Source of the DNA: an uncultured Saprospiraceae bacterium
GTDB lineage: Bacteria > Bacteroidota > Bacteroidia > Chitinophagales > Saprospiraceae
Assembly (NCBI GenBank): GCA_964419315.1
Contig: CAYQRA010000001.1
Location: 1 to 33,662, forward strand
DNA: 33,662 bases
Direction: 5' to 3'
Numbering within the stretch: the stretch's first letter is position 1; each line of letters opens with the position of its first letter. The position numbers and the translations under genes are program-made. A model generated the notes under the pieces. It was not told the DNA's origin. It saw nothing but the letters and a program-made list of their open reading frames with translations, and made no database searches. Shown in pieces: positions 932-27,664 of the stretch.

Positions 932-3343
932 ATGAGATCAAATTTATTACTATTCGCTTTTCTTTTCTTTTTCAGTGCGGTCCATTCCCAAGAGAACATC
1001 AATATGAACCTCTTATCTCAGGTCGATTATCCTGAAAATTGCAATGATGTTTGGGGTTATGTGGCGCCAGATGGCACTGAATATGCCATTTTGGGAACGG
1101 TGGAAGCGACTGCTGTTATTAGTCTAGCTGATCCGCTCAATCCGACAGAAGTTAAATATATTCCTGGTACTACCTCCACTTGGAGAGATATGAAAAACTG
1201 GGGAGATTTTGTCTATGTCACTACTGATAGAGGTGCCGACGGCTTGCTCGTTATAGATATGAGTGGCGCACCGACGGACATTACTTTTGAGTATATCAAT
1301 TTGGAAGTAAACGTCAATGGTAATATAAGTGATATTGGCAAATGCCATAATATCTATATCGACGAAAATGGTTTTGCCTACCTGTCGGGATGTGATGATA
1401 TCAATAATAATGCGATAAATAATGGAGGAGTACTGATCATTGATGTACATAGCACTCCTGGCGTACCGGTGCATGTAGGACAAGGTAGAGCAGTGTATTC
1501 TCACGATAATTATGTGAGAGGGGATACGCTTTGGAGCTCTGATATTAATGCGGGGGTTTTTTCTGCTCAAGATGTAAGTGATAAAGATGATCCTGTTGTA
1601 TGGACGACCGAAGCGACGACCTCCAATTTTACGCACAATGCTTGGCTTTCAGATGATGGTGATTTTTTATTTACGACCGATGAAAGACCAAATGCCTTTG
1701 TTGATGCTTATGATGTTTCTGATTTGGACGAGGTGGATCGCTTGGATTCCTACCGACCTAAAGCAACAGAAGGAACGGGAGTGATTCCGCACAATACCCA
1801 TTATGATGATGGTTACATCGTCACTTCTTGGTATACCGATGGAATCATTGTGGTCGATGCCAACCGACCGAACAATTTGGTTCAAGTAGGAGCATACGAT
1901 ACTTATGAGCCCACTGATATTGGTGATGGATTCAGAGGTTGCTGGGGAGCTTATCCTTTCTTGCCTTCTGGTTTGATCTTGGCTTCTGATATTCAAGAAG
2001 GTCTATTGGTCTTTGGAACTACTTATGAACGAGCTTGCTACCTTGAAGGTCAAGTAACTTCTTCGCTCGATGGTTTGCCAATCAATAATGTGTCTGTCAA
2101 TGTACAAGATATTGTAGAAGCAGGAGTCAATTCTGATTTTATGGGAGATTACAAAACGGGATATGCCAATGCCGGAACTTACATGGTCACCTTTACGAAG
2201 TCTGGATATATTCCTAAGACCGAAGAAGCGACTTTGGTAAATGGAGAAGTTACTATTTTAGATGTAGTATTGGAGCCAATGAATACCTTGTCTATAAAAG
2301 TAGTGGATGAAGATAGTGGAATGAATATTCCAAATGGTCTGGTAAAATTCTTCAATAATGCAGATGAATTTAATGTCAATGTTGGAGCAGGAGGGGAAAG
2401 TACCATTGCTTTTGCTTTAGGAACTTATTCGGTTTATGCAGGTGCTTGGGGATACCAAACGAAAAGCATGAGTTTTGATTATGATCCGATGAATAATTCT
2501 TTAGTGATTGAATTGGCTCCTGGTTATAAAGATGATTTTGTTTTGGACTTGGGTTGGGCACAAGACAATATTAATGCTAGCTCAGGAGACTGGGAGCGTG
2601 GAGTGCCAATCGCCACTACTTTCAACGGTGAGTTTAGTAATGTCAATGAAGATATTGAGGATGACCTTGGAGAGGAATGCTACATGACGGATAATAGAGG
2701 TGGCCAAGCAGGGGCTGGTGATGTGGATGGAGGAAGTGTAATTTTGATTTCTCCAGTTATGAACTTAAGCACTTACACAGAACCAACGGTTTCTTATTAT
2801 ACTTGGTTTTATAACCAAGGTGGTGGTGGTACTACTTCCCCAGATGATTCTTTGATCGTTTCTTTGGACAATGGAATGGAAGAGGTCATCCTAGAAGTCA
2901 TCACCGAAAGCAATGGTGCTTGGCGCGAAAAATCGGTATTCAAAGTAGCGGATTTTATTACACCAACAGATAATGTGACGATCCGTTTTCGTACCATGGA
3001 TCAACAGGGATCCGGTCACCTTGTTGAGGCAGGCGTAGATGCGTTTTTGGTAACAGAAGCGGGTACAGTTGGCTCTGATGAGGTAGAAAACCTCGCAAGT
3101 CAATTGAGTGTTTTCCCTAATCCATTTGATAATTCTTTTTATTTGCAGTATGATGTTTCGCTTGAGCAAGCAGAAGCTAAAGTATTGGTATATAATGTTT
3201 TGGGGCAAGAGGTTTATCAGGAACGTTTGGCCAAAAGTGCTGGTACTTTGGAATTGGGAGCGAATTTGCAGAAAGGCATTTACTTTGTGATGATTGCTTC
3301 TAATGATAGTCAAAGCAAGGTGCTGAGAGTCGTGAAGGAATAA
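932..3343 (+). CDS. T9SS-secreted LVIVD-repeat / choice-of-anchor-B-like beta-propeller protein with CarboxypepD_reg-like domains
   Basis: The track ORF is 803 aa and starts at the ATG at 932. The signal peptide is MRSNLLLFAFLFFFSAVHSQ. The N-terminal DVWGYVAPDGTEYAILGT motif plus repeated blade ends (GLLVIDMS, GGVLIIDV, DGIIVVDAN, EGLLVFG) are typical of LVIVD/choice-of-anchor-B propellers. Two carboxypeptidase-regulatory-like beta-sandwiches follow (e.g. GQVTSS...KSGYIPKTEEATLVNGEVTILDVVLEP). The C-terminus (about 3092..3340), LSVFPNPFDNSFYLQYD...KGIYFVMIAS...VLRVVKE, fits the T9SS type A sorting domain. Confidence 0.9.
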   Translation: MRSNLLLFAFLFFFSAVHSQENINMNLLSQVDYPENCNDVWGYVAPDGTEYAILGTVEATAVISLADPLNPTEVKYIPGTTSTWRDMKNWGDFVYVTTDRGADGLLVIDMSGAPTDITFEYINLEVNVNGNISDIGKCHNIYIDENGFAYLSGCDDINNNAINNGGVLIIDVHSTPGVPVHVGQGRAVYSHDNYVRGDTLWSSDINAGVFSAQDVSDKDDPVVWTTEATTSNFTHNAWLSDDGDFLFTTDERPNAFVDAYDVSDLDEVDRLDSYRPKATEGTGVIPHNTHYDDGYIVTSWYTDGIIVVDANRPNNLVQVGAYDTYEPTDIGDGFRGCWGAYPFLPSGLILASDIQEGLLVFGTTYERACYLEGQVTSSLDGLPINNVSVNVQDIVEAGVNSDFMGDYKTGYANAGTYMVTFTKSGYIPKTEEATLVNGEVTILDVVLEPMNTLSIKVVDEDSGMNIPNGLVKFFNNADEFNVNVGAGGESTIAFALGTYSVYAGAWGYQTKSMSFDYDPMNNSLVIELAPGYKDDFVLDLGWAQDNINASSGDWERGVPIATTFNGEFSNVNEDIEDDLGEECYMTDNRGGQAGAGDVDGGSVILISPVMNLSTYTEPTVSYYTWFYNQGGGGTTSPDDSLIVSLDNGMEEVILEVITESNGAWREKSVFKVADFITPTDNVTIRFRTMDQQGSGHLVEAGVDAFLVTEAGTVGSDEVENLASQLSVFPNPFDNSFYLQYDVSLEQAEAKVLVYNVLGQEVYQERLAKSAGTLELGANLQKGIYFVMIASNDSQSKVLRVVKE

Positions 3344-3362
3344 GGCATCTTAGTGCTGTTAT

Positions 3363-3406
3363 AAAAAAAGCTCCATTTCAAATCTCTTGAAATGGAGCTT
3401 TTTTTA
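3363..3406. terminator. Bidirectional intrinsic terminator between convergent genes
   Basis: There is a perfect 12-bp stem, agctccatttca (3369..3380) / tgaaatggagct (3388..3399), with a 7-nt loop. An A7 run lies on the left and a T7 run on the right, so either strand reads a hairpin followed by a U-tract. It overlaps the TAA stop of the minus-strand gene (3404..3406). Confidence 0.8.
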
Positions 3407-5524
3407 TAGTTCTTTTAGGTATCCTTTTTTACCTTTAAAAATGCGTTCCAATAAAGTCTGTTCCTCCTCCGGATCTTCTAAGATATCTGTGGATTCAAAA
3501 ATTTTGGGTGCTTCTTTCCCTTTCTTTTTCTCTACCAAAATCCGATGAGGTTCGCTTTTTTCCACTACGATATATTTATTTTCTGTACTGTTTAAACGAA
3601 GCTGAAATAGGAGGTAATTCCAATCTGCTTTATTCTCTAGCAAGACCACTTTTTTGAAGATCGGTAAAAAGTCTTCTTTAAAAGCGAGCCAACTTTTTTT
3701 CTTTTTGATCGAAAAAAGTATTTCTCCTTCTTTGCCATCTTCTAGCAGCGTATGGGCGCCAATCATTCGATGGTGACCAATGTGAAAATTATTATCAAGA
3801 CTAAAAGATTTGAAACTCGTCACGAGTTCATTGCGGTGATTAGCGCCTTCTAAATGCAAAGGACGCTTATTGATTTCTTCGATCAGAATATTCCTAGGCG
3901 ACTCATCATAAGGCAAAAACAGTCCTTTGAAAAAAGTAGCACCTGCTACAATTATCGGCTGCAAAAAATCTAGTTCGATCACTGGATTGTCTCTAAAAAT
4001 AGATGGGGTACTTTCGTCTGGAAAAGAAGTGAGGTCTTGCGGTAGCCTAAAAGTCTTAAGCGAGGCTTCATTGAGATCAATGACTCTTTTTTGACTTCCT
4101 CCTAAGGTTTTTAACCGCGCATTTTGTAATACCCCAGAACCTACATTATAGCTTTTTCCAAAAACTTCTACGATGGCTTGTTCGCCAGAAAAGGCCACTT
4201 GTAATTTGTCTAAACCAAGTCGTGCATCAAGTACGATTTTTTCGCCATTGCTTGCCGTGGCATTCAATAATTTGTATTTTGCATTTTCCTCAATTCCTTC
4301 GATGTCTATTTCCAAATCAGGAAAGGAAACCGTTTGCTTGGTTTTTTTATAGAATAAAACCTTTCGATCGCCCAGGTCCGCTAGCGCAAGGTACTTGCTC
4401 AAAGCCGGAACTTCTTGGATCGCATGGGGACTAAGACTTCCATCGTTGAGGCGAAGCATTTCTTGCGTGGTCTCATTATAACAAAAATGTTGATCCCCAG
4501 CAGCTAGATTGCGAATGTCTTCACCATTGATACGGATACTTTTTAAGTCGATGTGGGTGATGGGTTCGTTGCTGATATCGGAGAGGTAGAAAGTGGAACT
4601 TTTATGGAGATCCATGTAATGCCTATGATCCGCATGTTGGCATTTTACCAATTCCAATTTTCCAAGTTTAAGATACGTATCAAAATCTACGGAGACCAGA
4701 TGATTGTCGCAGTGTACCACTTCTTGGCTATTGATGTGGAGGACGTACTCTTGTTGATTGCTACTAAAAACCTCATAGCGTTGTGTCCCTTTTTTTTCAG
4801 AGCGCAAATGTTTGCTGATCGGGGTCTTGTGTATTAAAAAAGGCTTTAAGGTAGATTCAATAATAAAACCAGTTTGGTTTAAGCCCAATTGAACTTCTTG
4901 CACTTTTTTATCTTGGTCGATCTGTATGTTTTTAGAACCAATGCCGGTTATTTTTTCGCCGAAATATTGGAGGAGATTTAATTGTAGATCAAAAACCAAT
5001 TTGCCAACTTGAATCAACTGCTTTCCGGTACTCATCCGTATAGCGGCTCCTCGAAAGACCAAGGATTGTTTGCTTGTTTTGCCGGGCAAAGAGATCAAAA
5101 CATCATCTTGCAGAAATACGGTCGATTCCATTCGATTGCCCTCGATATCATACCAATAGCCACGACCATCTTTTCTAAAAAAGCCACCTAGGATGGGATC
5201 AGAATAATGGTCTTCCCAATGTTCTGAATTTTTTATCGGAAGATTATTATAATCTCGATAGTAAAACTGATCTGCCGTTTTTAGAATGATCAATTGATGG
5301 TTTTTGGGTAGAAAAACTTCCTCGATTTCTGTTTTGTCGATCTGATAAATTTTAGGTTTTTTACGAGCTTCCAGACTTTCTTTGTGATAGACCGCACAAG
5401 CTCCTCTTGTGCCCCATACGACCACAATATTTCCAAAAATATGGAAAAAAGAACAAGTCAAATCTCCAATCTTTTGACCCGCTTCCAAGGCAATATTTTC
5501 TTGCTGTTTGCTTTGATTTGACAT
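3404..5524 (-). CDS. Hypothetical 706-aa cytoplasmic protein, translationally coupled to the upstream vWA gene
   Basis: The track ORF is 706 aa. Its ATG (5524..5522) overlaps the TAA stop of the upstream gene (5526..5524) as TAATG. There is no signal peptide or TM segment. Composition looks beta-rich. Two His-rich patches are present: QHADHRHYMDLH (about 4600..4650) and HIGHHRMIGAH (about 3750..3790). I recognise no family motif. Confidence 0.85.
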   Translation of the reverse strand: MSNQSKQQENIALEAGQKIGDLTCSFFHIFGNIVVVWGTRGACAVYHKESLEARKKPKIYQIDKTEIEEVFLPKNHQLIILKTADQFYYRDYNNLPIKNSEHWEDHYSDPILGGFFRKDGRGYWYDIEGNRMESTVFLQDDVLISLPGKTSKQSLVFRGAAIRMSTGKQLIQVGKLVFDLQLNLLQYFGEKITGIGSKNIQIDQDKKVQEVQLGLNQTGFIIESTLKPFLIHKTPISKHLRSEKKGTQRYEVFSSNQQEYVLHINSQEVVHCDNHLVSVDFDTYLKLGKLELVKCQHADHRHYMDLHKSSTFYLSDISNEPITHIDLKSIRINGEDIRNLAAGDQHFCYNETTQEMLRLNDGSLSPHAIQEVPALSKYLALADLGDRKVLFYKKTKQTVSFPDLEIDIEGIEENAKYKLLNATASNGEKIVLDARLGLDKLQVAFSGEQAIVEVFGKSYNVGSGVLQNARLKTLGGSQKRVIDLNEASLKTFRLPQDLTSFPDESTPSIFRDNPVIELDFLQPIIVAGATFFKGLFLPYDESPRNILIEEINKRPLHLEGANHRNELVTSFKSFSLDNNFHIGHHRMIGAHTLLEDGKEGEILFSIKKKKSWLAFKEDFLPIFKKVVLLENKADWNYLLFQLRLNSTENKYIVVEKSEPHRILVEKKKGKEAPKIFESTDILEDPEEEQTLLERIFKGKKGYLKEL

Positions 5525-8163
5525 TAGCGATTCGCTTTAATTTTCCTAAGTTTTTTTAGTTTTTGTTCCTGTTTAAATACTCTTCTTTGCTTTTTATAAG
5601 TCAAACTCATCACATAGACCAGATCGCTGATGGCTTGGCTAAATTTATAGCTTTCTACAAAGTTATCCTTTCCAAAAATTTCTTCCATAAAACTTTGGCG
5701 AGTACCTAGCTTTAGCAAATGATCGTGCCCATTATAAACAGGCGGTCCTTTTCTTTGGTCGGCATCCTCGTCGTCGTCTGCACGCAGAAAAATGCCATTA
5801 ATCGCCAATTTGCCTTCCTCCCTTCTTGCCTGAATATCTTTGTTTAAGGCCTCCTTAGAAATGATGCCCATCGAAGGTTCTCCATCCGTAATGACAAAAA
5901 TAGATTTTAAATGATTAATCTCTGGATTTTCTTTTTCCAAAGCCGCCGAAAATTCATTGATGCGAATATGGCATTGTTTGACCCCTTCTCCTAGGTTGGT
6001 GCCACCACCACCGCCATACAAAATTCCACGATGATGGATTTTAGCTATTTTTTCCAAAACAGAAAAGAGCAAAGAACGATTGGTGTAATTGCTGCTAAAA
6101 TTGGCCCCTTCCATAAAATTAGTGCCAAAAAAATGAAAGGCATCATAAGACTTACGATCCTCCAAACCCAGTACCAAAATATAAAGGATTTTAAATAAAT
6201 TCCGCATCCTAGGATGATTCATCGAGCCAGAACTGTCGAGTGCAAAGGCATTGATTTGCACCACTTCTCCACGGGTAACTTTAGTTCGCAGCGTTTTCAT
6301 GACTTCCCCGCTCATCCATTTGTTTTGATCCTGTACGGTGTCTGGGTCAAATTCAATTCCATCCGTACTGTGTCGAAAGGGATCAAACTCCGTAGATTTT
6401 CGATTGGGTAGGGCAGACTGAAAAATGTTTTTGACAAATCCAATATAGGGACTCACCTCTTTTTCAATTTGCATCATTTCATCCAACCAAAGCTCTTTAT
6501 TTTTATTGGCTTGCGAAGCGTGTTCGATGATGCCATATTCTTTCATCGCATTGATGCGAAAATTAATTCTATTTTTAATCGCTCTAGCTTGGAGGGAAAA
6601 AGCATTGAACCACTCTTCCTGAAAAACAGGGATGGTAAAGGGGGCGTTCAGATTTGTGATTTTTTCCAAATCTTCCATTTCTTCCGCCTCCTTCAGTACC
6701 AGGAGTAACTTATCCAACTTTGCTCTTTCTTGGCTTTCTAAATCTCTGTTTTCTTCAAACTCCTTATGCAATAAAAAACTAACTTCGGGAGATAATATAT
6801 TCCATCTTGGAACACTCCGGCTATCTTGTATTTCCCAACGAATAACCGGACAAGTAAGTGGATTCAAAAGATTGGATAATAGTAGCTCTAAGCGCGCTTG
6901 TGCAAGTTCTTTTAGTAAGGCCAAGGAGTTTAATGTTTTTGCATGCGCTAAGATTTTTTTCCTGCGCTCTTCTGGGATTTCCCACCATTTGATGGCCTCT
7001 TTTACCTGATATTCCAAGGCGGGCGGATGGTATTGAACCAACTCCCTATTGGGCTTTTTATCTGCGGAACTATAGATGCGATCAATGATACTTGATTTTT
7101 CCAAAGAGGCTTGGATTTGCTCGATCTCTGGCTTTTTTTCGGGTGCTTCCTGTAATTTTTCTCGCCTTTCCTCCGGGAAAAACTGTAGTAAGTTTTTTCC
7201 ATGAAAATCATCGAGCAGTTCTTGGACTTTCATTTTTTCGATATCCTCTTGGTAGAGTTGAAAAAATAATTTGGTGATGACCTTTTCGGAATGGAAGGCT
7301 CTATTTTTTTGAGTAAAATTCTTCTTCTTTTTCTTATTGCCCTCTAAGGAATAGTTGAAACCGTATTGGCAATGATGCTGGATGGAAGCGCCAAGTATTT
7401 TCCAAGCCTCCTGAACTTTGGGGTCAGAAATATCGACCAAAGAATTGATAGTGGTATTACTAATGCTTGGGAAAAACGTTTTTTGTAAAGCCGTTTGGAG
7501 GAGTATATAAAACTGTTCGAAGGCCAATTTGTAGCGAAAACCAGAATAATCAATTCGCTCTTCCAAGACAAAAAGAATTGCTTCTTCTTCTAATGGCTTG
7601 GCTTTAACTAAGTTTTTATAAAAGGAAATGGAGTGCCTAAATGTTACCCATAAACCTATAATGGATAAAGGTATTTCCGCATGAATTTTCTGATCTTTAG
7701 TCTCTTTTAATTTTCTGATATAGTCTATCCAGAAAAATTTTTCTTGCAAGAGAAAGGCATAACGGATATAATGGCCTAAGTTTTTATTGGAAAAACGATT
7801 TAATTCAGGAATAGGAAGGAAAAAACCTTTTGGAATTATTTTTTTCATTTGTTTCTTCCAAAAGGTAGGAGTTGGATGAAAACTAGGCTGCAAAATTCTT
7901 TGCAAATCATCATTGGGCGTTGGAGCTGCCTCCTCCATGCCCGGAATAGATTCTTGATCAGATTCCTCTTTCTTAAAGAAAGGTTCATAATTGGCCAAGT
8001 CAATGTGCCAAGCCCAAAAACTATCTGCCTTATCATTTGGATAAAATTCGATGAGTATCTTTTGCTGTTGATACCAAGTGGATTGTACCCTTCTCCAGTT
8101 TTCTGCCCAGCGTCGCTCAGGAGAAGTATTCGGATCTTCAGAAGTTGTTTTAGTTTCTGACAT
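5524..8163 (-). CDS. vWA (von Willebrand factor A) domain protein with intact MIDAS; large helical N-terminal region (CbbO/NorD-like layout)
   Basis: The track ORF is 879 aa with its ATG at 8163..8161. The C-terminal third carries MIDAS motifs in canonical order: D-S-S-G-S-M (DxSxS, 6220..6237), GGGGGTNLGEG (Thr motif) and FVITDGEPS (Asp motif). The N-terminal 630 aa or so are Lys/Glu-rich and helical, with no motif I recognise. Confidence 0.9.
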   Translation of the reverse strand: MSETKTTSEDPNTSPERRWAENWRRVQSTWYQQQKILIEFYPNDKADSFWAWHIDLANYEPFFKKEESDQESIPGMEEAAPTPNDDLQRILQPSFHPTPTFWKKQMKKIIPKGFFLPIPELNRFSNKNLGHYIRYAFLLQEKFFWIDYIRKLKETKDQKIHAEIPLSIIGLWVTFRHSISFYKNLVKAKPLEEEAILFVLEERIDYSGFRYKLAFEQFYILLQTALQKTFFPSISNTTINSLVDISDPKVQEAWKILGASIQHHCQYGFNYSLEGNKKKKKNFTQKNRAFHSEKVITKLFFQLYQEDIEKMKVQELLDDFHGKNLLQFFPEERREKLQEAPEKKPEIEQIQASLEKSSIIDRIYSSADKKPNRELVQYHPPALEYQVKEAIKWWEIPEERRKKILAHAKTLNSLALLKELAQARLELLLSNLLNPLTCPVIRWEIQDSRSVPRWNILSPEVSFLLHKEFEENRDLESQERAKLDKLLLVLKEAEEMEDLEKITNLNAPFTIPVFQEEWFNAFSLQARAIKNRINFRINAMKEYGIIEHASQANKNKELWLDEMMQIEKEVSPYIGFVKNIFQSALPNRKSTEFDPFRHSTDGIEFDPDTVQDQNKWMSGEVMKTLRTKVTRGEVVQINAFALDSSGSMNHPRMRNLFKILYILVLGLEDRKSYDAFHFFGTNFMEGANFSSNYTNRSLLFSVLEKIAKIHHRGILYGGGGGTNLGEGVKQCHIRINEFSAALEKENPEINHLKSIFVITDGEPSMGIISKEALNKDIQARREEGKLAINGIFLRADDDEDADQRKGPPVYNGHDHLLKLGTRQSFMEEIFGKDNFVESYKFSQAISDLVYVMSLTYKKQRRVFKQEQKLKKLRKIKANR
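5674..6261 (-). other. vWA/MIDAS domain of the 879-aa protein
   Basis: Residues about 635-830: VVQINAFALDSSGSMNHP ... YGGGGGTNLGEGVKQC ... SIFVITDGEPSMG. The order and spacing are those of a metal-ion-dependent adhesion site. Confidence 0.8.
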
Positions 8164-8225
8164 AAAGGAGTGTCGGGATTAGCCTTTCTTTTGTAAATTA
8201 ATTTTGCATTCGACTAAGTTATATT

Positions 8226-8233
8226 TATGTTTG
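8226..8233 (+). promoter_or_regulatory. Candidate -7 box (TATGTTTG) in the 190-bp divergent intergenic region
   Basis: The sequence matches TAnnTTTG. A second match, TAATTTTG, lies at 8199..8206. Both are upstream of the ATG at 8354. There is no experimental support and the choice between them is arbitrary. Confidence 0.2.
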
Positions 8234-8353
8234 TTAAAATTCAACAATGTCGAGAATAAAAAGAAAATAAGTAAGTGCTTGGACCAAAGATTTCCTAAAT
8301 TAAACACAATTGACCTTCCTGTCAAAATAAATCGCTATAAAACCTAAAATACA

Positions 8354-11300
8354 ATGCCCTCCATTAAAGAACAGTTTTCTTTCCAACAATTGCCCGATCA
8401 TTTCGAAAAGGATACCCATATCGGAATAGAAGGTTTGGCCATCCAAGAGTTGCGTTTGCTTGCGGGCGAAAGCCCCAAAGAAGATCTTCTGGTTGTGATC
8501 TATAAAAAAAGTCCTTACCTGAGTTTCTATGATACACAAGGAGAGCTGATTGATGTAGATCATTATCTACCAGATACTTACAAAAAAGAAGATACTTATG
8601 GCGCGGATAGCCTGATGGCCAATTTGCGGAATTTTAATGTCGCTGAATCTAAGAAAAGCAAAGTCTTTTACCACTTAATCACTGAAGTCTTATCAATTGA
8701 TGGAGGAACTAATCTCGCAAAAGGACTTCGAAGTCGCTATGGATTTGAAACCAGTAGCGGAATCCTAAAACAATTTTTTCGTGCAGAAGGAATCACTGGA
8801 GACATCAGAGATGGTTTATTAGATAAATTTACGAGCTTTTATGCTTTTTTAGAATCCTTGATTCTTTTTCAACAACAAGGTAGAAATAGTTATGTGCACA
8901 TCACCGCTCAGGATAATATCGTTATCACGCCTTTGCAAAAGAGAAGTGGGATTGCGGTGATGATGGAAACCCAAAATATCAAAGGTCATCTTTTACCGCC
9001 CAACCAGTGGTTGATTACCCGCACCAATGACGTCGACTCCTTAGAGCAAGCGCTGATTTTTAGAACCAAAGATATCCAAGACTTTTTTGAAGCGGAGGCG
9101 GATGATGAAGTGATCGAAACGGATCGTTATAAATTATACCACACCCCCGGAGAGGTGGAGATAGATAGTTTATTGGACAACACTGGGAATCTTTTAAAAT
9201 TGGCTGCGCTGAACGACTGTCTACAGATTTTACCTTCTGATAATAACATCATCGTTGTATTAAGTAACGAAAGAGAAGTCACGGTGGTGAATACCCATCG
9301 TTCGATCGTTCCGCACAAATGGCCAAAGAAAATTATCTTGCCAGAAGCAAGTCATTGGGTGCGGGCGGATGAAAATATACAAGTTCTTTTTGTACAAAAT
9401 AAAATAGGAACGATCAGTGCTTATGATATTATTGGAGACCATCCGGAGTTGCTGCAGGAGATCGGAACCTTTGCCTTGGGTTTTGAATTGGACCAAAATG
9501 CTTCTTTGATTGTCAAAGAAAAAGAGAGTCGAGGCCTTCTAAAAATTACGACGAATACCGTGGATATAGAAGTACCTGCGGAGCAACAAAACTTCAAAGC
9601 AATCTTGGAAAACTTGTCTTATCTTTTTAAAGGAGAAAGTCTGTTTACCGAAACGCAGTTTGCTAAAGTAGTCCAGGAAGAAGCACCAGAAGAAACAAAA
9701 ACGCCCAGTGTTTTTGAATCTGCTCGCTTTGACTTTGAAGCCAATGTAGAGCAAATGCTGATGGAAGCTGGAAAGAGTTATGAAGAATTATTATTGGTGC
9801 AAAATAAAGTCGCTATTTCCCGACAAAACCTTGGAGAAGAACTAACGGCTTACGCGGAAAAAGAAGGCATCTTTTTGGTGGGACAAAGACTACAAGCGGC
9901 GATCAACGCCATCATCAAACCTTCAGAAAAGAAAGTTCGAAACTTGGTGGAAGAATCAAGATCTGCTTTGATTCTCGAGGAAGTTAAAGGTTTTCGAGGG
10001 AAGATGGAAGACCTATCAGATCCTAATGCTTATCGAGAAATTTTGAATGCCTTACGGCAATTTCAAGAGGAACTCAATGCCATGTTGCCCGATAATACCA
10101 CGCGGATGATGACGGAATTTAAGAGCATAAAGAATGAACTCAATCTTGCTTTTTCTGACCAGATCGCAAAAGATGGTTCTGCTCTCCAAGAGTTTATCAA
10201 TGGAGAAATCAATCAAATAGAAAAGGCGATAAAAGACACCCATGATCCCCGACAACTGGAGACTTTACTGAGCACCCATCCGGCTTCTTTGGAGTTGATG
10301 AATTTGCTGAAGCAACCCTTCCTTCTACAGAATATCGCGCGTGAACGAAGCCTATCACCGGCTGGCATTCAGAGCCGTTTATTTGCTTCTGTAGCTGCTC
10401 GGAAAATTGAATTGAAAAAAGAATTGGAAGCCAAGGAAGCGGAAAAAGGAATTGCCAAAAAGCAATTCGCTAAAATGATTCAGGAGAGCATCGACTTTTT
10501 TGTAAAAAATCATACCAAAGATTTTTCTGACCTTTCCCTTTCTGTCAATGCTGCTTATCAGCAAATATTAGGAGACATTCAGCGCTTGGAAAAAACGTAT
10601 CGCGATGTTCGTTTGGCTACCGATCTGCGGAGAAAATTAGAGCGAAGAATCTTGGAGCGCAATCGCGCAGACTTAGAAAAAATGGTCGCCTTTGAAGGAA
10701 AATATGCCTTTATAAAAAATGACCCTGATTTATATGTGGACTTAGAATCTACTGTTCGAACTTTTCCAGTTTGGAGCATGCGCTTGATAGAGAAAAAAGG
10801 TTTTTCTGGAACCTATATGGTGACTTTTATGAGAAATACCGACCGAAATGTTTTTCGTCCTGGCGCTACTGAAAATTTAGCTTCAGGAAAAGCCTTCGAG
10901 ATTAACGAAGAGGAGTATGGTACTTTTGCGGAAAGTTATGAAGCTTATTGTACGGGAGATGTTCCTTACGAATTGGCCGATATCCTTTGGGAGATTTACC
11001 AAGGAAAATCTTTGGCGGAGAATTTTCCACAATATTCTAAAATACGAATTGAAAACCTTTTACCAAAATCCAAAGAAGCCGCTAAAGGTTTGCGTTGTGC
11101 TTTGGAGAAGAAAAAAAGAGATCATTTAGAACGAAACCGAAAGCGCTTTGTACCAAGAATTAGTCCTGAGTTTATAGATGAGACTCCTTATTTTCAAAGT
11201 AAGTTGCAAGAGTTTGTCATCAAAGCCAAATTGCAATTGGTGAGTGGGTCGGGAGCGATTTTATTATCAGGGCCACCGAGTACTGGAAAGTCTGCCTTTT

Positions 11301-12274
11301 TAAAATTTGCGAGTGCCATTATGAATCGGGAATATTTTGAGCATGCCGCAGATAAATGGCAAACCAAAAATAGTTTGATCACTGCGATTAAATTTGGAGA
11401 GAATGGCCCTTATGCTACTCCCGCAGGTTTTACCGTGGCGATTACTACTCCGCATAGTTTGATCAGCATCGAGGAAATCAAGGAATGGCCGGAGGCTTTG
11501 CGGAAGTCATTGAATCCTTTCTTTGCAGGCAGTAAAATCTTCGTTGCACCGGATGGGACCAATTATGATATTGGAGAAAATATTTTGCTTTGTGCGGCTG
11601 CCAACCTTGGTGCCATGTATCGCCAAGACGATGAACCGTTTACCTCTGATTTTTGGTCGCGGATAGAAGTTGTGGAATATAGTTATGCTCCGGAGCAAGT
11701 AGATCGAGAGTATTATGAAGACTTGCATGATATGAAAATCCGACAGTTTTTGACCATGCAGGATTTGATAAAAGAAAAGTTTAAAGTCAATGCTGCTCCG
11801 AAGGAAGTGGTCGCGCGAGCACAACATTTTGCGAAACTATTTTTAGAATTTATTTTGCTGCCCAAAGCAGATGAAAATGTTAAGCGTGGCAATTTGCAGG
11901 GGTACATCAGAGAATATTTTGAAGATCCAGATGCTTTTGAAGGCAACCAATACAGCCCAGAGGAAGCCGCCAAGGTGGCGCTTCGCCGCCTAAAAGATTT
12001 CCAAAAATTTTCTGCCAAAGAATTCTTCGACCTCTACGATCATTTTGTCAATCAACAAAACATCAGAACCAAGCGGATAAAACGCTTGCAAGCTGGAGAT
12101 ATTGATCGCTACAAGCAATTGAAAGGTTTGATTCTTACGGTCCGCTATTTAGAAGGTTGTTTGCGTCATTTGCGGAAAAAGTTTTATGCCACTGCTGGCC
12201 AAACGGAAATTGAAGGAACCAATCGAGAGTTTATCAAGTGTGTTTATTTATTAGGGATGATTGGGAAGTTTTAA
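8354..12274 (+). CDS. Giant AAA+ ATPase (single C-terminal AAA_5/MoxR-like module) with about 970-aa non-ATPase N-terminal region
   Basis: The track ORF is 1306 aa with its ATG at 8354. Walker A is GPPSTGKS (aa 973-980, 11270..11293). A Walker-B-like strand is SLISIEE (aa 1035-1041, 11456..11476). The sensor-1 region is ILLCAAANLG. FWSRIEVVEYSYAPE corresponds to the LLDRF...YP element of MoxR/AAA_5 ATPases. The N-terminal 440 aa or so look beta-rich, and aa 450-800 or so are a long helical, coiled-coil-like Glu/Lys/Leu-rich stretch. Confidence 0.9.
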   Translation: MPSIKEQFSFQQLPDHFEKDTHIGIEGLAIQELRLLAGESPKEDLLVVIYKKSPYLSFYDTQGELIDVDHYLPDTYKKEDTYGADSLMANLRNFNVAESKKSKVFYHLITEVLSIDGGTNLAKGLRSRYGFETSSGILKQFFRAEGITGDIRDGLLDKFTSFYAFLESLILFQQQGRNSYVHITAQDNIVITPLQKRSGIAVMMETQNIKGHLLPPNQWLITRTNDVDSLEQALIFRTKDIQDFFEAEADDEVIETDRYKLYHTPGEVEIDSLLDNTGNLLKLAALNDCLQILPSDNNIIVVLSNEREVTVVNTHRSIVPHKWPKKIILPEASHWVRADENIQVLFVQNKIGTISAYDIIGDHPELLQEIGTFALGFELDQNASLIVKEKESRGLLKITTNTVDIEVPAEQQNFKAILENLSYLFKGESLFTETQFAKVVQEEAPEETKTPSVFESARFDFEANVEQMLMEAGKSYEELLLVQNKVAISRQNLGEELTAYAEKEGIFLVGQRLQAAINAIIKPSEKKVRNLVEESRSALILEEVKGFRGKMEDLSDPNAYREILNALRQFQEELNAMLPDNTTRMMTEFKSIKNELNLAFSDQIAKDGSALQEFINGEINQIEKAIKDTHDPRQLETLLSTHPASLELMNLLKQPFLLQNIARERSLSPAGIQSRLFASVAARKIELKKELEAKEAEKGIAKKQFAKMIQESIDFFVKNHTKDFSDLSLSVNAAYQQILGDIQRLEKTYRDVRLATDLRRKLERRILERNRADLEKMVAFEGKYAFIKNDPDLYVDLESTVRTFPVWSMRLIEKKGFSGTYMVTFMRNTDRNVFRPGATENLASGKAFEINEEEYGTFAESYEAYCTGDVPYELADILWEIYQGKSLAENFPQYSKIRIENLLPKSKEAAKGLRCALEKKKRDHLERNRKRFVPRISPEFIDETPYFQSKLQEFVIKAKLQLVSGSGAILLSGPPSTGKSAFLKFASAIMNREYFEHAADKWQTKNSLITAIKFGENGPYATPAGFTVAITTPHSLISIEEIKEWPEALRKSLNPFFAGSKIFVAPDGTNYDIGENILLCAAANLGAMYRQDDEPFTSDFWSRIEVVEYSYAPEQVDREYYEDLHDMKIRQFLTMQDLIKEKFKVNAAPKEVVARAQHFAKLFLEFILLPKADENVKRGNLQGYIREYFEDPDAFEGNQYSPEEAAKVALRRLKDFQKFSAKEFFDLYDHFVNQQNIRTKRIKRLQAGDIDRYKQLKGLILTVRYLEGCLRHLRKKFYATAGQTEIEGTNREFIKCVYLLGMIGKF
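11201..11713 (+). other. AAA_5/MoxR-like P-loop ATPase module
   Basis: The Walker A, Walker-B-like, sensor-1 and Arg-containing elements listed for the parent CDS all fall in this interval. Confidence 0.75.
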
Positions 12275-13415: not shown

Positions 13416-14504
13416 CTAGCTGTCTTGATCTTTTTCCTCCGTTGGATCTTCCGATCCCTCTTGCTCTTTTTTATCCTCCTCTAATACGATGGCATCGTCA
13501 ATTAATTCGTTAGGATCAGGCGCGGGTGGGGGAGTACTTCCCAATAGATCATTGAGCTGATTTTTGTCGATATTGATCTCCTCTGGCTTTGGATCGGTGA
13601 CGATTTTCATTTCTTCGCTGGGTGATTTGGGACCTTCATTATGGTAATCACCACGTGCAAAACGATCTGCTTTGGCAAAGAAATCATCGGTGCCGTCGAG
13701 TAGGCTTTTATCATTGTCTTCGATTCGAGGAGCTTCGGAGAAGCCAGCGCGGCGTTCCTTGGCTTTAGCATCTATTTTATCTGCCAAATCTTTGGCCTTT
13801 TGCACCATGTCATCCATGTTGCCATCTTGGGCAATTTTCGCATTGGCTTGGTCAACGGCGTCTGGCCCTTCAAAAGGATCTAAACCTTTGGCTTCGCGAG
13901 CGGCCGCTTCTTGCGCTTCATCGAAGAAGCCTTTTGCCTTTTTACCCACATCCTCTCCAACTTCTTTGAATCGTTCCATGGCATCTCCTCCTACGTCCAT
14001 GACTTTGCTACCAATATCTTCTGCTACTCCTTTGGTTTTTTCTAGAATTGGTCCTGCTGCTTCAATGACTTTTCCACCCACATCTTCCGCTACATTTTTG
14101 GCCTTGTCCATGGCATCTCCAGATTTATCGAGGATGCTAGCCCCCAAATCTTCCGCTACCGTTTTGGTCTTGTCGACTAGTGGTGCAGTGGCATCTATCA
14201 CTTTTCCGCCGACCTCTTCCGTAAAATCTTTAGCTTTGTTTACTACTGGTCCCGCAGTTTCAGAAAAGTTCTCTCCGAGGTTGTCCATCACCTCTTTTGC
14301 TTTGAGCAAAGCATCAGAAGCGGCATCCTTGGCGGTGTGGAGTACATCCCCCGCGATATCTTTGGCACCATCTAAGGCGTCTCCACTTTTGTCGACTAAT
14401 TTGCCACCGGCCTCCATTCCAGAGTCGACGACTTTATTTCCAGCTGACTTAGCGACAGATTTAGCTCCAAAGAGGAGTTTTTTGACATCATTAAAAAAAC
14501 CCAT
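13416..14504 (-). CDS. LEA/apolipoprotein/perilipin-like amphipathic 22-mer repeat protein with acidic disordered tail
   Basis: The track ORF is 362 aa with its ATG at 14504..14502. There is no signal peptide. Aa 24-195 or so are tandem 22-residue units (TEEVGGKVIDATAPLVDKTKTV / AEDLGASILDKSGDAMDKAKNV / AEDVGGKVIEAAGPILEKTKGV / AEDIGSKVMDVGGDAMERFKEV). The C-terminal 100 aa or so are Pro/Glu/Asp-rich. Confidence 0.8.
   Translation of the reverse strand: MGFFNDVKKLLFGAKSVAKSAGNKVVDSGMEAGGKLVDKSGDALDGAKDIAGDVLHTAKDAASDALLKAKEVMDNLGENFSETAGPVVNKAKDFTEEVGGKVIDATAPLVDKTKTVAEDLGASILDKSGDAMDKAKNVAEDVGGKVIEAAGPILEKTKGVAEDIGSKVMDVGGDAMERFKEVGEDVGKKAKGFFDEAQEAAAREAKGLDPFEGPDAVDQANAKIAQDGNMDDMVQKAKDLADKIDAKAKERRAGFSEAPRIEDNDKSLLDGTDDFFAKADRFARGDYHNEGPKSPSEEMKIVTDPKPEEINIDKNQLNDLLGSTPPPAPDPNELIDDAIVLEEDKKEQEGSEDPTEEKDQDS
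13920..14435 (-). repeat. In-frame tandem coding repeats (66-bp / 22-aa unit, about 8 diverged copies)
   Basis: The periodicity is visible in the protein. It also shows in the DNA at 132-bp spacing (e.g. tgacttttccacccacatcttccgctac vs tcacttttccgccgacctcttccgtaaa). Confidence 0.7.
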
Positions 14505-16891: not shown

Positions 16892-19800
16892 CTATATTCG
16901 GGTAACTTTGAATTTTTTGGTAATCACCATATCCGGTAATTTGATGTCTATATAGTAAATTCCAGAAGGCCAATTACTGACATCGACTGTCGTTTTTTGT
17001 TTTGGGAAACGTTCCTCATGAAGTTTTTGTCCCAAAACATTGTATACGGTCACCATCCTCATGTCCACTGGATTATAGTTGTGAATATTGAGAATGTCAG
17101 TAGTTGGAACAGGGAATACCGCTAGTCCATCTAGGTCTTTATTGTCTTCTATATCGGTAGAAATAATTCCTGGGGAATCTGGTGCATAAAGGACCAGTGC
17201 TTCTTCCATGGCATTGATGGCTTTGATGTGGGTGACCTTGACGGAAGTTGGCGCTTCTTTGCCAACAATGTCATCAATTACACCGATGAAATTTCCAATT
17301 TCTCCAAAACCTCCGGTACTTAGTTGATCGATTCTGCTGATGGCAATTTCTATTCGGCCATCCGCCATATCGCTCCGGTCAATACTCAAAAGATCTACAC
17401 TAGGCGTTCCAAACCAACTTTCAATGGTTTCAAATTCGATCGAACTTGGAAGGATCATTTCTGGATCATATTCTAGAGTAAAGGCAATTCCATAAATGTC
17501 TTCCATTGGAATATCGAAGGAACCCAAAACAAGGGGAGCACTAAGCGTTTGTCCCGGCGATAAAGTTCCTAAAGATGCCAGATCAACATAGATCGGTGGA
17601 TCATTCGGAGTGCCCGGTAAGCTTACTACGGGTTCTACTGGACCATGTTCTAGTCCGTAATTTTCTTGAATAACTTCGAGGTCTTTCTCGTCGATAATAC
17701 CATCTCCATTACAGTCGCTGTGCTTATAGTTGGTCACGCCATCTGCAAAAAATGCTGGCCAATCTTCGGCGGCTAGGCCATCCCAGTCGGTGCTTTGGTT
17801 GGGTCTAGAAAATCCTTGTTGACCAAAGGCAATTCCTAAGTTGAGTAGGTCGCAATGGTTAGCGATGTTATCCGAATTGGCATCGCCGGGCCAGACCTGA
17901 GCCACTTGGATCGAAGTGTAATAGCAGACATTGTCTATGGCTAATTCTACGCCACCGATCACCATATTTTCTACTTCTCCAAAAAGGCTGATATTACCTT
18001 CCGAGGTATTCGTAGCATCTCTATTGAAGAACATGGTGATACCCGGTGCAATAAATAAAACGGTATCTGGAGTGTCGAAATCAAAAGAGAAGACGTTTCC
18101 ACCATTGACGATCAATTCATTGTCAATGCCACCAGAGAAATCAAAACTGACAAATTCAATTGGATCACCGACACCAGAAAAATCAAATGCTAGCTCTCCT
18201 CCCAAGAAGATATGCAGACCGGAAGCGGCATTAAACATGGTCCATTGGGGAGTGCTGACCGCTTCTGCATAACTGATGTCATTTAGCATCGTCACCTCCA
18301 CACCATTAGATTCTAGTAGCAGTGCATCGTGGTTATTGAGGTTGTAGCTGAAGCCTTCTTCTAGTTCTTCGAAAGCCACACAGTCATTATTGGGAGTAGG
18401 AGGAGAGCTATTGATACAGATATTGTCAAAAGTAGATTCTACCCCACAGATGGTCAGTTCTTCTACTGCCCCAGTAATGCTTACCGTTCCTGCGATCGAA
18501 TTTGGGCCATAGGGTTCAATGATGATTTCATGTCCTGTACCTAGGCTAATGGTATTGGCATTTGCATCAAAGAAAATGGAATCGCTAACTCCGGCAATGC
18601 TAAGATAACCTTCATTGCAAAAGTCAAATGAAACGGAACTAGGAATTGGACTGAAGCCCGTAAAATCTAAACTGATTCCTGCGTTTTGTAAAAACAACGT
18701 TTGTCCACTATTGGTGACACTTCCACAATTGGTGCCATTTTGATATTCCCCTCTGACTTCGAAAATACTACTATTATTCACTTCATAGCAATCGCCAAAG
18801 CTGACGTCCATTCCTGCGGACTCGAAGACAAAATTACCGGGGATGATTTCATTGCCATTGAAAACCATATTGGGAGATAATTCTTCAAAGTCGATACAGG
18901 TATAATCCATTGGGCAAGGAAGGATATCAAAATCCATCTCTACACAACAGTTTGGATTATCATTGATGCAAATTTTTAGGACATCAAAACCTTGGTTGTG
19001 ATTGATATTAGGGAAGTTGTGTATCGTGATGGGGAGTTGGTCTAACTCATAGGTTCCAATATTTTCTCCTTGGAAGAATACATCGAATAGGTCATTATTA
19101 GGATTTTGGTAATTGAAGTTGAGAAACAAATTACTGGTTCCGTCTAGATTACAACCTTCCCAATTGATCCCAACATCTGTGATGCTACAATCTTGGTTGC
19201 AAAGCGGGGAGTCCAAGCCAGTTTCGAGTTGACAGTCAGTCGCAACAAGATCACTTACCAGGAATTCTAAAACGGTACTACCGTCGCCATCGAATGGTCC
19301 GAGTTGGATGGGAAGATCTGTATAGTTAAAGTTTCCGTAGTTGCTTCCATTGCCAATGACACTAAAAGAATCGCTGCCATTATTTTGATAATCAAACTCT
19401 AGATTTACAAAAAACTGGCCATCGGCATTACAGTCGGTAGGATTGACAATAAGATCCGTGATTTCACAAGGATCACCACAGTCTAAGGATTGGAAGTCCG
19501 TTTCTGTGCAGCAGTTGCCACTGCCATTGATACAGACTAATAAGAAATCACCACTAAGACCTGACTCAGGATAGTCGGTAATCGTCAAAGGTAGATCTGC
19601 AAGATTATAAGTATTGAATACCGCATTACTACTGGTGAAAATCGTGAATAAATCACTATTCGTATTTTGGTGTTCAAAATCAATTTGAATAGATATGGTG
19701 TTAGGGCCCGTACATTCTAGAGGAATGACTTCTAGGTCGCTGATTGAGCAGACCAAAGGACAATTTGGAATTTCAACTTCACCATAGAGGGAACAGTCAA

Positions 19801-22800
19801 ACATCGGATCTTGCACTTCTACTTCCATAATTGCTGGAGTAGAAGAAGCGGGAAATGGCCCGATTAGTTGAGGGAATTGCGTATATGGAAATGGACCGTA
19901 TAAAGTATTATTGATAACCACCGTATATTCAGGGCTATTGATATTTGGATTTTTTTCTACATAAACCAAGGTATAGAATTCGCCATTATAACACTCTATA
20001 GCTTCTACTTCCACATTTAAGATAGGGCAGTCCGGGTTGCAATCTCTTACTTCTACTAAACCAGAAATACAACAATTGGGGTCTACTAAATCACAGATTT
20101 GGATAGTTGCTCCTTGGCTGACATTGGCATTGTATTCAATATAAATGGGGAGCTCTGTATACGCGAAGGTGCCAAGAATTTCTCCCAATAAAGTGACTTC
20201 AAAACTATCGCCTCCAGGATTATTGGCATCAAAGTCAATCTTGTATTTATTGACTCCATTTACACAGCCCAAATCCTCAATCAACAGAGTGTTAAGTTCG
20301 CAAGTACTATTACAATTTACGGCCTCAATATTTACGACACCAATGCAGAATGGATCTGCTGCATCAAAAACATTGAATTGTAAATCATTGCCTGTATTGC
20401 CCGGAAATGGACCGAGGGTAATTGGAAGGGCGGCGTAATCAAAAGTTCCATAAAAGACACCATTGCCAACGATCATAAAGCCACCTAGCCCCGGGTTTTG
20501 TACCTCAAAATCTATATCGACCGTAAAGTTACCCGTAGCATCACAATCGGAGGCTTCTCCGATTAACTCGTGTATATTACAAGCGTTAGTACAGGAAACA
20601 GTTCCTAATTCAAATACAGCTTTACATTCTTGGTCGTTTTGGTCGATCACTATAAATTCATATTCGGTAGTGCCATCGCCAGGGAAGGGGCCGATCGTTA
20701 GCCATAGGTCGGAGTAGGCATAGGTGCCATGATTCATCCCATTGCCCGTGATATAAAAGGAATCACTAGTTCCAGTATAGTTGAAGTTGAGATCAACCAA
20801 GAAATTTCCATCTTGATCACAATCCCAAAACTCTACAATCAGATCATTGATTTCGCAATCATTGATGGAGCAGTTGACTGGGCCAAATCCTATAAATTCT
20901 TTACAATCTGGATTGGCTAGGTCATAAAAACCTAGTTCGTATTCCGTAGTGCCATTCCCAACAAAAGTACCAATGATAGGAAGTGGATCAGCATAACTAA
21001 AGTGGCCATAATTTTGGCCATTGCCGATGATGCCGAAGGAATCAGCATTATTGGTGATGTCTAATAATTCGACCTGAATACTAAATGTTCCATTGGGGGT
21101 ACAAGGGAGTATTTCAATGGCTACTTCAATGTCATTGAGGTCACATGGATTACAGCCCTCTGGGATAATCTCTACCCATTCGCTACAGTTAGTGGGATCA
21201 CTGTCTTTGACACAAACTTTTGCCACTTGGTAGATCGGTGATCCACTCGGTAGATTAATGCTAAGTGGGAGCGCAGAAAAAAGATAAGTACCAAAAGTAA
21301 CACCATCTAAATATAGTTCGAAGAATTCGTTGCTAGGATTATTAAAGTCAAAGTCTACCTCTAAAACGGAGTTGTCGCAAAATTGGACAACAGTTGGATT
21401 GCCTATAAAAGTACTACAGCCGCTTTGCTCAACATCTACAAGCTCAGAACAACAACTCGGATCGTCTTTTACACAAACCTTTGCTGTATAAAAAGCATTC
21501 GTATTTGGAAGTTGTTGGAGGCCAAGTGGTAAAGCAGAAAATGGATAAGATCCATAAACGGTACCATTCAAATACAGATCAAAAGAATCACCAGTCACAT
21601 TGGTATGATCAAAATCAATTTCAAAGTAAAAGTCATTACAGTAATGGATCGCGTTTACGTTTTCTATCGCACAGTTGCTTTGGAAACCAGTGGTATAACA
21701 CATCTCAATGAATTGTAAATCCGCCCCTCCAAAAGTGACCGAACTTAGAGCAGGATCAGAGATCGTGATGATATAATAATTGCTGCCGGGAATCAGTTCC
21801 TTGCTTACCTTGGCACCACCTGCTAGGGTAGTAGGTAGAATACTGATATCATTGATGTAAAGAATGCTTTCTCCATTGGCTGCAAAATTAAAACCAGCAG
21901 CGCCACCATAAGCAAAGCTAAAGCTCGTTACTGTTTCCGCAACATTTGTAAAATCAACTTTGACATTGATACTATTAGAAAGGTAGAAAGCCGAATTGTT
22001 TGGGTTTTCAAGATTTCCAAAGACTGGATTTGCTCCAGCACCGGGAAGGTATTCCTCCAAAGTGATTTTTAGATCGCTATTGGTACTGCTGATTTGAAAA
22101 CCTGGGTTTTGCCCGCCACCTTCTCCATAGAAAGTACCTGCTGGAAAGTCCGTAAAACTAAAACAGCTCGTTTCAGTTACCGCAGCATCAAAGCAGAAGT
22201 CTTGGAGTGCCAAACCTTCCGTACCACCGATGGTGATGGTTTCGAAGATGGGGCCTTTTAGGCTTAAGTAATATTTTGAATCTGACGGAATAGAAGAATC
22301 AATGGTCATTATGACCACGGTACCATCAGGAAGTACACTAGGTACCTCCTCGATATTTTCAAAATAAAAGGTAGTTCCATTATTGATTTGTAGATTTAAA
22401 CCCTTTCCACAACAACTAGGAAGTAAAGTGAAGTTCACCTCCGCAATAGGATCGGGGAGTCCTGAAAGGTCGACTTTCATTCCAATGTCATCAAAGGCGA
22501 AGAGATCATTATCTACTCCAAGGTAGCCATGTAAAGTTAAGTTGCCGAATTGACTATTATTGTTTTGATCTATCCAATTTTCTAGAGTTAGTTTGATGTC
22601 GTCCGTTAGTACAAAGAAGGGATCAACGGTAGCACCTGGCTGGCTATTGGAGGCAGAAAAAATAAAGGGACTATTGTCATATTGTACATCCAAGCAAGTT
22701 GGAGAAATGATGAGTTCGCAATCCGAATCTAATCCATAGAGTTCTGCAACATCATTTAGATTAAGGGCACGGTCATAGACTCTTAAGTCATCAATAAAGC

Positions 22801-26545: not shown

Positions 26546-26585
26546 TTTGTTTTATTGCGAATGTTCGAAATTAGTGTGCAAGCAT

Positions 26586-27608: not shown

Positions 27609-27664
27609 GGAAGCAGGTTGATGTTTTTTAGTGAGGTAATAAAAATGACTTGGGGTTTACTGAA

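Follow-up and report, generated by a model that had tools for sequence, protein, structure and literature searches.

What do three adjoining genes, coding for a giant MoxR-class AAA+ ATPase, a protein bearing a vWA (von Willebrand factor A) domain and a third protein at first taken for an orphan, do together in the genome of an uncultured marine Saprospiraceae bacterium? The genes occupy positions 3404 to 12274 of the stretch analysed here, referred to as the window, which comprises 33,662 nucleotides of contig CAYQRA010000001.1 (assembly GCA_964419315.1). To our knowledge, MoxR-class ATPases with vWA partners are widespread and few of their clients have been identified. Known clients are Rubisco, NO reductase, lysine decarboxylase or respiratory complexes, chelatases and pre-60S particles. 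The original prediction, made by reading the sequence, proposed that the three genes constitute an uncharacterised three-component system. Our analysis indicates that the locus is a real, conserved and uncharacterised variant of the MoxR-vWA theme. We propose, with a probability of roughly 0.55, that the trio is a cytoplasmic, lineage-specific MoxR-class protein-remodelling machine of the CbbQ/NorQ/midasin branch, whose partner or client is the third protein, predicted to be a double beta-propeller. Within this proposal, we place more trust in the pairing of motor and adaptor than in the role given to the propeller protein.

All three open reading frames (ORFs) were located in the window as first described. 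The ATPase gene (8354..12274, plus strand, 1306 amino acids, aa) diverges from the vWA gene (5524..8163, minus strand, 879 aa) across a spacer of 190 bp (8164..8353). The vWA gene is followed by the ORF of the 706-aa protein (3404..5524, minus strand). Window positions 5522-5526 read CATTA, that is TAATG on the minus strand, where the stop codon of the vWA gene overlaps the ATG of the 706-aa ORF. A hairpin with a 20-bp stem and runs of A and T on its flanks (3361..3407) overlaps the stop codon of the 706-aa ORF; being terminator-like, it appears to close the minus-strand gene pair as well as the converging upstream gene. The ORFs, their quoted motifs, the TAATG overlap, the divergent spacer and the hairpin of the original prediction are thus all present. 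Full-length homologues of all three proteins (26-82% identity) were found in dozens of genomes, and for this reason the trio represents more than a chance arrangement. A sigma-70 promoter scan of the spacer returned no more sites than in shuffled sequence, no signal peptide was apparent by eye at the N-termini of the three proteins, and scans of the window for tRNAs, Rfam families and tandem repeats yielded nothing relevant.

We wondered how far this arrangement is preserved. Two invariant peptides of the ATPase were used to scan 185,579 species-representative genomes, an approach that reaches the close family only. It returned 56 loci, labelled as Saprospiraceae, Saprospirales, Lewinella, Neolewinella or unclassified Bacteroidota/Bacteroidia. 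There is one match per assembly, save for one assembly in which the gene is split across two contigs. The closest relative of the window is a Saprospiraceae genome bin (loci L005 and L059) with 89-97% amino-acid identity. Synteny was determined by tblastn of the three window proteins over 60 loci, and gene calls were read for three of them. Where at least 5 kb are available upstream of the ATPase gene, the propeller and vWA genes point away from the ATPase gene in the same order as in the window in about 26 of 30 loci. The propeller gene adjoins the vWA gene in nearly all loci that contain both; in about 20 of 34, the stop codon of the vWA gene overlaps the propeller start codon or is at most 2 nt away from it. 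Neolewinella antarctica has the vWA and propeller genes inverted together, so that all three genes run in the same direction there. Genes flanking the trio vary from genome to genome, which argues that the trio itself is the conserved unit. A separate metagenome scan centred on the propeller protein added three full trios and, in a marine metagenome locus, one lone propeller homologue. Taken together, the trio is co-inherited and mostly co-located across part of Saprospiraceae.

In one 3.1-kb metagenome contig (L069:434-3115), which is without a vWA gene, fragmentary ATPase matches on the opposite strand abut the propeller gene; this arrangement may result from rearrangement, deletion or misassembly.

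The nature of the motor was addressed next. The ATPase carries the Walker A motif GPPSTGKS at aa 973-980, of which G973, P974, P975, T977, G978, K979 and S980 are invariant in 27 aligned sequences, and the Walker B motif LISIEE at aa 1036-1041 with invariant E1040 and E1041. Sensor-1 N1084 (in CAAANLG) and R1103 (in FWSRIEVV) are invariant too and align with the MNP...SRA motifs of relatives. The invariant residues of this alignment include K979, E1040, E1041, N1084, R1090 and R1103. They all fall in the AAA_5 core (aa 963-1110, window 11240..11683, plus strand), delimited by the Pfam match, the invariant residues and distant alignments. The Pfam AAA_5 match itself (aa 969-1087, E=6e-5; 23.5 bits, with the cut-off at 22) is marginal; it is found in 27 of 27 family members, with a best E=1.8e-7. 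Together with the VWA match on aa 640-772 of the 879-aa protein, which also recurs in homologues, it bears out the two domain assignments made initially.

Relationship to known motors emerges through more distant homologs. HMMER search of 1.84 billion representative proteins gave 73 hits at E<=0.001, with the close family collapsed to few representatives. Among these, P0115 (1242 aa) is matched over about 800 residues with E=1.9e-36 and P0126 with E=1.8e-10. A further relative, P0171, aligns to the ATPase over its full length, propeller included (hhalign probability 99.3%, E=2e-20). Compared with solved structures, P0126 matches midasin (1.5e-28), CbbQ (1e-11) and NorQ (2e-8), and P0115 matches CbbQ (E=1.5e-5). 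A joint profile of the AAA region matches the same three proteins with E-values of 2.6e-47 (midasin), 1.3e-16 (CbbQ) and 4.5e-13 (NorQ). Its best stretch of midasin lies in the N-terminal third of the chain (i-Evalue 1.6e-15) and also spans residues directly ahead of the P-loop module. By these comparisons, the AAA module of the ATPase appears to be tied to midasin, CbbQ and NorQ through intermediate sequences only.

Across the superfamily, the last residue of the P-loop covaries with the first acid of Walker B (window 11270-11293 and 11459-11476). GKN is combined with DE in 25 proteins, GKD with NE in eight, including P0115 and P0171, and GKS with EE in the Saprospiraceae family; a single exception was noted. 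This looks like compensatory rewiring of Mg2+ coordination. The covariation suggests that the nucleotide site is under selection and so provides indirect evidence of function.

The layout of the ATPase is likewise preserved. All 70 homologues are about 1300 aa long (41-72% identity) and share a uniform architecture; the few that are named come from Neolewinella or from Saprospiraceae metagenome-assembled genomes. Mean column identity in the 27-sequence alignment is 63%. An AlphaFold2 (AF2) model was built for aa 1-1199 with 39 sequences (mean pLDDT, the per-residue confidence, 72.8). Its first 400 residues (8354..9553, plus strand) are beta-propeller-like with a helical insert at about aa 76-177 (pLDDT 80-93). 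They are followed by helices reaching about 50 residues in length (aa 510-553 and 669-719 are examples) in the region aa 408-781 (9575..10696, plus strand; pLDDT about 65-83), which probably form a coiled coil. A small alpha/beta domain precedes the AAA module (aa 807-927, 10772..11134, plus strand; pLDDT 81-92) and could be assigned to no family. The C-terminus past the AAA_5 module is helical. Foldseek search with this model retrieved WD40 and propeller-plus-helical proteins (G-beta, IFT-A, GATOR2 and Utp proteins), with TM-scores of 0.43-0.47 for G-beta when normalised to the target. The propeller is highly conserved with many invariant residues, and its region can be aligned with that of the distant relative P0171. 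Over 2000 aa of the three proteins had initially been considered unassignable; this no longer holds, since most of the ATPase extension can now be described as propeller and long helices.

Resemblance to eukaryotic propeller scaffolds raises another explanation, in which the trio is a structural or scaffolding assembly of cytoskeletal, coat-like or motor-like kind: the ATPase, with its propeller and helices, and the double propeller would build a large lattice that the AAA module assembles or disassembles. The top Foldseek matches of both models are indeed such scaffolds (IFT-A, COPI, GATOR2, CORVET and Utp proteins of the SSU-processome), about 370 residues of the ATPase are long helices, and its strong conservation would fit a housekeeping structural role. 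These matches are local, however, with root-mean-square deviations of 25-60 Å and TM-scores of 0.1-0.2, and so speak only for the class of fold. Being long and coiled-coil-like, the helices do not form a solenoid of short ones, and no linkage to membrane or cytoskeleton genes was observed for the trio. We therefore regard a scaffold as very unlikely. A protocoatomer-like organization of the ATPase (propeller plus solenoid) was dropped for the length of its helices and the poor Foldseek superpositions.

In the second protein, the MIDAS (metal-ion-dependent adhesion site) motifs DSSGSM, GTNLGEG and ITDGEPS are present in the translation, and D643, S645, S647, T722 and D760 are invariant in an alignment of five sequences. 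Of the homologues of this protein, one was obtained by word-index search and the rest from neighbouring ORFs. The Pfam VWA match (aa 640-772, E=1.5e-4, 22.5 bits) falls slightly short of the cut-off of 23.8; the family is matched in four of the five homologues. The protein consists of a variable N-terminus (aa 1 to about 380), a conserved helical linker (about 380-630) and the C-terminal vWA domain (about aa 632-860, window 5584..6270, minus strand). About 630 aa thus lie ahead of the vWA domain, and overall identity among homologues is 26-32%. The protein ends about 20 residues past the vWA domain and a short conserved tail, with no propeller fused there. This organization recalls CbbO, a protein of about 770 aa in which about 550 poorly conserved residues precede a vWA domain with perfect MIDAS (PMC4660213). 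On the evidence of its sequence, the 879-aa protein is laid out like the adaptors CbbO and NorD, and its MIDAS site is intact. All three proteins had been regarded as oversized compared with classical pairs; this is true of the ATPase alone, while the 879 aa of the vWA protein fit the CbbO layout.

The adaptor is shared with the distant relatives. Its linker and vWA domain (aa about 380-860) are homologous to the 955-aa partner of P0115 (hhalign 98.9%) and to the 910-aa partner of P0171 (98.2%), and the 773-aa neighbour of P0126 can be aligned over the vWA domain (96%). A separate feature is an insertion of about 23-27 residues after the vWA core, DADQRKGPPVYNGHDHLLKLGTRQ (about aa 792-828, window 5680-5790). 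It is found only in the window protein and in the 75%-identical P0072, and is absent from the other three aligned homologues.

The third protein had been described as an orphan with no recognisable motif. This description has to be replaced: its AF2 model, built with 26 sequences, is all-beta with mean pLDDT 88, and Foldseek search against PDB retrieved Utp21, COPI beta-prime, Gemin5, DDB1 and IFT-A subunits with E of about 1e-8. We are confident that the predicted fold is a tandem beta-propeller, similar to double WD40 proteins. Pfam scan of the protein gave no match, Pfam and AF2 revealed neither tetratricopeptide (TPR) repeats nor a membrane helix, and PDB sequence searches with the single sequence and with the family profile returned nothing useful. 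Its 29 homologues (35-82% identity) come from Saprospiraceae-type sequences, unclassified Bacteroidota or marine metagenomes, with one labelled as Polaribacter. Homology to the N-terminal propeller of the ATPase was considered and is unsupported (hhalign probability 1%).

Unrelated genes occasionally separate the propeller gene from the vWA gene. In one locus, the inserted gene codes for an apparently secreted 1138-aa protein with a signal-like N-terminal sequence (L044:1823-5239, minus strand), in another for an AAA-ATPase_like/PDDEXK_9 protein (L067:2757-4382, plus strand). The lone propeller homologue mentioned above (L070:3277-5469, plus strand, 36% identity) is located between a gene for a PALP enzyme and DUF4340/ABC-auxiliary genes. 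A 356-aa ORF upstream of it was examined as a possible vWA remnant and rejected, as it is the PALP enzyme.

Is the three-gene organization ancestral? Even far-removed relatives of the window ATPase are encoded next to a vWA gene; for example, P0126 and P0127 neighbour VWA/CobT_C proteins of 656-773 aa. The deeper conserved core thus consists of a giant AAA_5 ATPase and a large protein with C-terminal vWA domain, and it extends well beyond Saprospiraceae. The propeller gene is a lineage-specific third member added to this older core. Some distant relatives lie among genes such as DUF4012 and MreB. Neighbours of these types are common in Patescibacteria, and the surroundings of such relatives are in this sense Patescibacteria-like.

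Known systems suggest how such a machine might work. If the trio works in the manner of CbbQO, NorQD and Rea1, a hexameric ring would be formed by the C-terminal AAA modules, and one vWA adaptor would dock on it. The metal ion of the MIDAS could then capture a carboxylate side chain of the target, and ATP hydrolysis would pull or twist it via the adaptor linker, changing its conformation or assembly state. The double-propeller protein would be the most likely direct partner, either as the client itself or as a platform presenting the client. The ATPase's own propeller, placed on the long helical arm, may serve as a second binding site away from the ring.

Several observations weigh against this proposal. 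With regard to the motor, Walker B has the form hhhhEE, with Glu in place of the Asp of canonical hhhhDE. Direct searches of PDB with the single ATPase sequence and with the family profile found no MoxR-type structure, midasin included; the top matches are Lon and MCM9 with E of about 0.015. Because of this, and because AF2 performs poorly over the AAA core (pLDDT 30-50 at aa 967-1110), assignment of the AAA+ fold rests on motifs, the marginal Pfam match and transitive homology. With regard to the adaptor, the vWA profile matches no PDB chain at E<=1, NorD included, and search with the single sequence returned nothing useful. Physical association of the three proteins is suggested by analogy. 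The ATPase also evolves much more slowly than its two partners: compared with the window, it is 53-63% identical in the same genomes in which the vWA protein reaches 32-38% and the propeller protein 35-46%. Finally, linkage is incomplete. Four loci, L018, L022, L036 and L047 (Neolewinella persica), have the ATPase gene on its own, with about 7-8 kb upstream and 1-8 kb downstream available, and around the propeller homologue of L070 neither the 3.4 kb upstream nor the 10 kb downstream contain a vWA or ATPase gene. L025 has no partner gene within its 2.6 kb upstream of the ATPase gene; it and the lone-ATPase loci are Lewinella-type sequences with 55-57% identity. The claim that the three genes form one unit is supported by synteny and coupling in most loci, and its linkage is not universal. 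Moreover, no propeller gene was seen in the distant two-gene loci. As linkage has been lost in one subclade and these two-gene relatives lack the propeller gene, the propeller protein may be an accessory instead of a client.

Taken further, the same facts lead to a reading in which the ATPase and vWA protein alone are the machine, and the propeller gene is a co-transcribed, functionally separate passenger. It would explain the two-gene relatives, the unrelated genes inserted between vWA and propeller genes in L044 and L067, and the solitary homologue in L070. Several findings speak against a passenger, though: the propeller gene adjoins the vWA gene in nearly all loci with both, usually with overlapping stop and start codons, and the two remain together even in Neolewinella antarctica, where the orientation of the pair with respect to the ATPase gene is reversed. 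In addition, its homologues are confined to the Saprospiraceae-type, unclassified Bacteroidota and marine metagenome sequences listed above, apart from the single Polaribacter label. On balance we consider a mere passenger quite improbable and retain a remodelling machine with the propeller protein as partner or client.

How does such a machine compare with characterised pairs? The Rubisco activase CbbQ-CbbO (Tsai et al. 2015, PMC4660213) resembles it in combining an AAA_5-type motor with a separate adaptor (about 770-880 aa) encoded by an adjacent gene, and, through intermediates, the AAA region has in CbbQ one of its nearest solved relatives. On the other hand, the trio ATPase has 1306 aa against about 270, its extra parts being a propeller, long helices and an alpha/beta domain; its Walker B ends in EE, no Rubisco gene is nearby, and a dedicated third gene codes for the double propeller. 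The trio vWA protein has no PDB sequence match and resembles CbbO in layout. In NorQ-NorD (Kahle et al. 2026, PMC13036017), a MoxR-class hexamer likewise acts through a vWA partner, and NorQ is among the proteins matched by the joint AAA profile of the trio family. Differences concern the giant N-terminal extension of the trio ATPase and the NO reductase gene, which the trio lacks.

Midasin (Rea1) is a eukaryotic ATPase of 60S biogenesis whose WD40 substrates are Ytm1 and Rsa4. Similarity to the trio includes AAA_5 modules, a MIDAS domain paired with WD40 propeller proteins and a long helical element on the motor; of all solved structures, midasin is also the best match of the distant relative P0126. 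Unlike midasin, with six AAA modules in tandem, the trio ATPase has one module per chain, and the MIDAS resides on a separate protein. The trio propeller protein is double and no ubiquitin-like domain was recognised in it, and the Saprospiraceae family itself lacks a direct midasin match. It is conceivable, if doubtful, that the trio and its two-gene relatives form an unrecognised prokaryotic midasin-like lineage with the MIDAS protein acting in trans, which extracts a WD40-type double propeller from, or installs it in, a large assembly. A single-module AAA_5 motor with propeller and long helical arm would then, through the MIDAS protein, handle a propeller protein much as Rea1 acts on Ytm1 and Rsa4. 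If true, this would matter for the question of how midasin originated, and bacteria would be seen to possess a housekeeping remodeller of a new kind.

Whatever its client, the remodelling machine we propose stands apart from classical pairs in several respects. Its motor is about five times the usual size and has its own propeller and helical arm; a dedicated double-propeller protein, a candidate client, is encoded alongside; three compensating versions of the nucleotide site occur across the superfamily; and some distant relatives resemble midasin more closely than they do any solved bacterial MoxR protein. Work on the family might reveal in what way force passes from a MIDAS adaptor to a defined partner. 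As the cultured Neolewinella antarctica DSM 105096 carries the complete trio, the family is open to experiment.

The closest published category is formed by the beta-propeller-containing MoxR-vWA ternary systems of Bacteroidetes, which have no conventional effectors (Kaur et al. 2020, PMC7159879). In that class a propeller follows the vWA domain in the same chain, GxxxTAKS P-loops are frequent, and the third component has a variable N-terminus, a membrane segment, TPR repeats and a propeller (PMC7159879). Common to these systems and the trio are the MoxR-class ATPase, the vWA protein with long helical N-terminus, a propeller-bearing component, occurrence in Bacteroidetes and lack of a conventional effector. 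The features that define the class are nevertheless not those of the trio: its vWA protein has no fused propeller, its P-loop is GPPSTGKS, its third protein has neither membrane segment nor TPR repeats, and its ATPase is giant and carries a propeller of its own. The supplement of that study (PMC7159879) makes no mention of Lewinella or Saprospira. A paper on contact-dependent predation, followed as a lead to midasin/vWA proteins, concerns Bdellovibrio adhesins and is irrelevant here.

In a few relatives, a further gene is located between the vWA and ATPase genes. Its product of 535 aa has TPR repeats and a single membrane segment at the N-terminus (L011:5929-7536, minus strand; L020:346-1950), and decaying remnants of the gene are found in L015 and L032. 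The protein recalls the third component of the propeller-type ternary systems.

This resemblance bears on the possibility, raised with caution in the original prediction, that the trio is a conflict or anti-phage system of the MoxR-vWA ternary type. Its propellers would be sensors of invaders, and an effector might be hidden in the vWA N-terminus or in the helical arm. Absence of a conventional effector would not be unusual for propeller systems in Bacteroidetes (Kaur et al. 2020, PMC7159879); the ATPase changes more slowly than the vWA N-terminus and the propeller protein do, flanking genes vary among genomes, and the membrane/TPR gene found in some relatives echoes the third component. Against this stand the missing class-defining features and the searches. 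No trio protein had a match in PADLOC-DB 2.0 at E<=0.1, or in NCBIfam or PHROGs; scan of viral contigs and tblastn against plasmids found no relatives of the trio; and Pfam and NCBIfam revealed no nuclease, protease, TIR or pore domain in its proteins. No McrC family member appeared in Pfam scans of the trio and the other large ORFs of the window, the partner of the ATPase being the vWA protein. The presumed sensor, the ATPase propeller, is highly conserved, and neighbouring genes are of housekeeping, secreted-protein or polysaccharide type. Persistence of the genes when dispersed is atypical of horizontally moving cassettes. Defence thus found no support, and we consider it unlikely. The trio appears to be cytoplasmic, chromosomal and vertically inherited. 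A vertically inherited cellular function fits better than a defence cassette because the ATPase is conserved, the architecture is uniform in about 70 homologues, there is one match per assembly within a single family, and the genes persist when dispersed. The statement that the system is uncharacterised is upheld by PADLOC, NCBIfam and PDB searches, in which no characterised family was matched.

Further, we examined the surroundings of the trio. Elsewhere in the window lie a polysaccharide-synthesis cluster and genes for esterases, for hypothetical proteins and for proteins that bear sorting domains of type IX secretion. In agreement with the initial reading, Pfam scans of the window detected none of the classical clients (Rubisco, NO reductase, CO dehydrogenase, chelatase H subunit), and neither mobile elements nor defence genes were found in it. 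C-terminal sorting domains of type IX secretion are present in proteins of 803 aa (932-3343, plus strand) and 2187 aa (16892-23455, minus strand), as fits a Bacteroidota chromosome. Such proteins flank the trio in other genomes too, yet they are no conserved partners. A 362-aa acidic protein without Pfam match (13416-14504, minus strand) contains repeats of about 33 residues (..AEDVGGKVI.A.GP..EKTK..); the 286-aa antisense ORF that overlaps it looks spurious. A 485-aa ORF at 23747-25204 has no Pfam match either. It precedes the polysaccharide-synthesis cluster (25862-33621), which codes for three glycosyltransferases, a Polysacc_synt flippase-type protein, a HAD hydrolase and a sulfatase-family protein.

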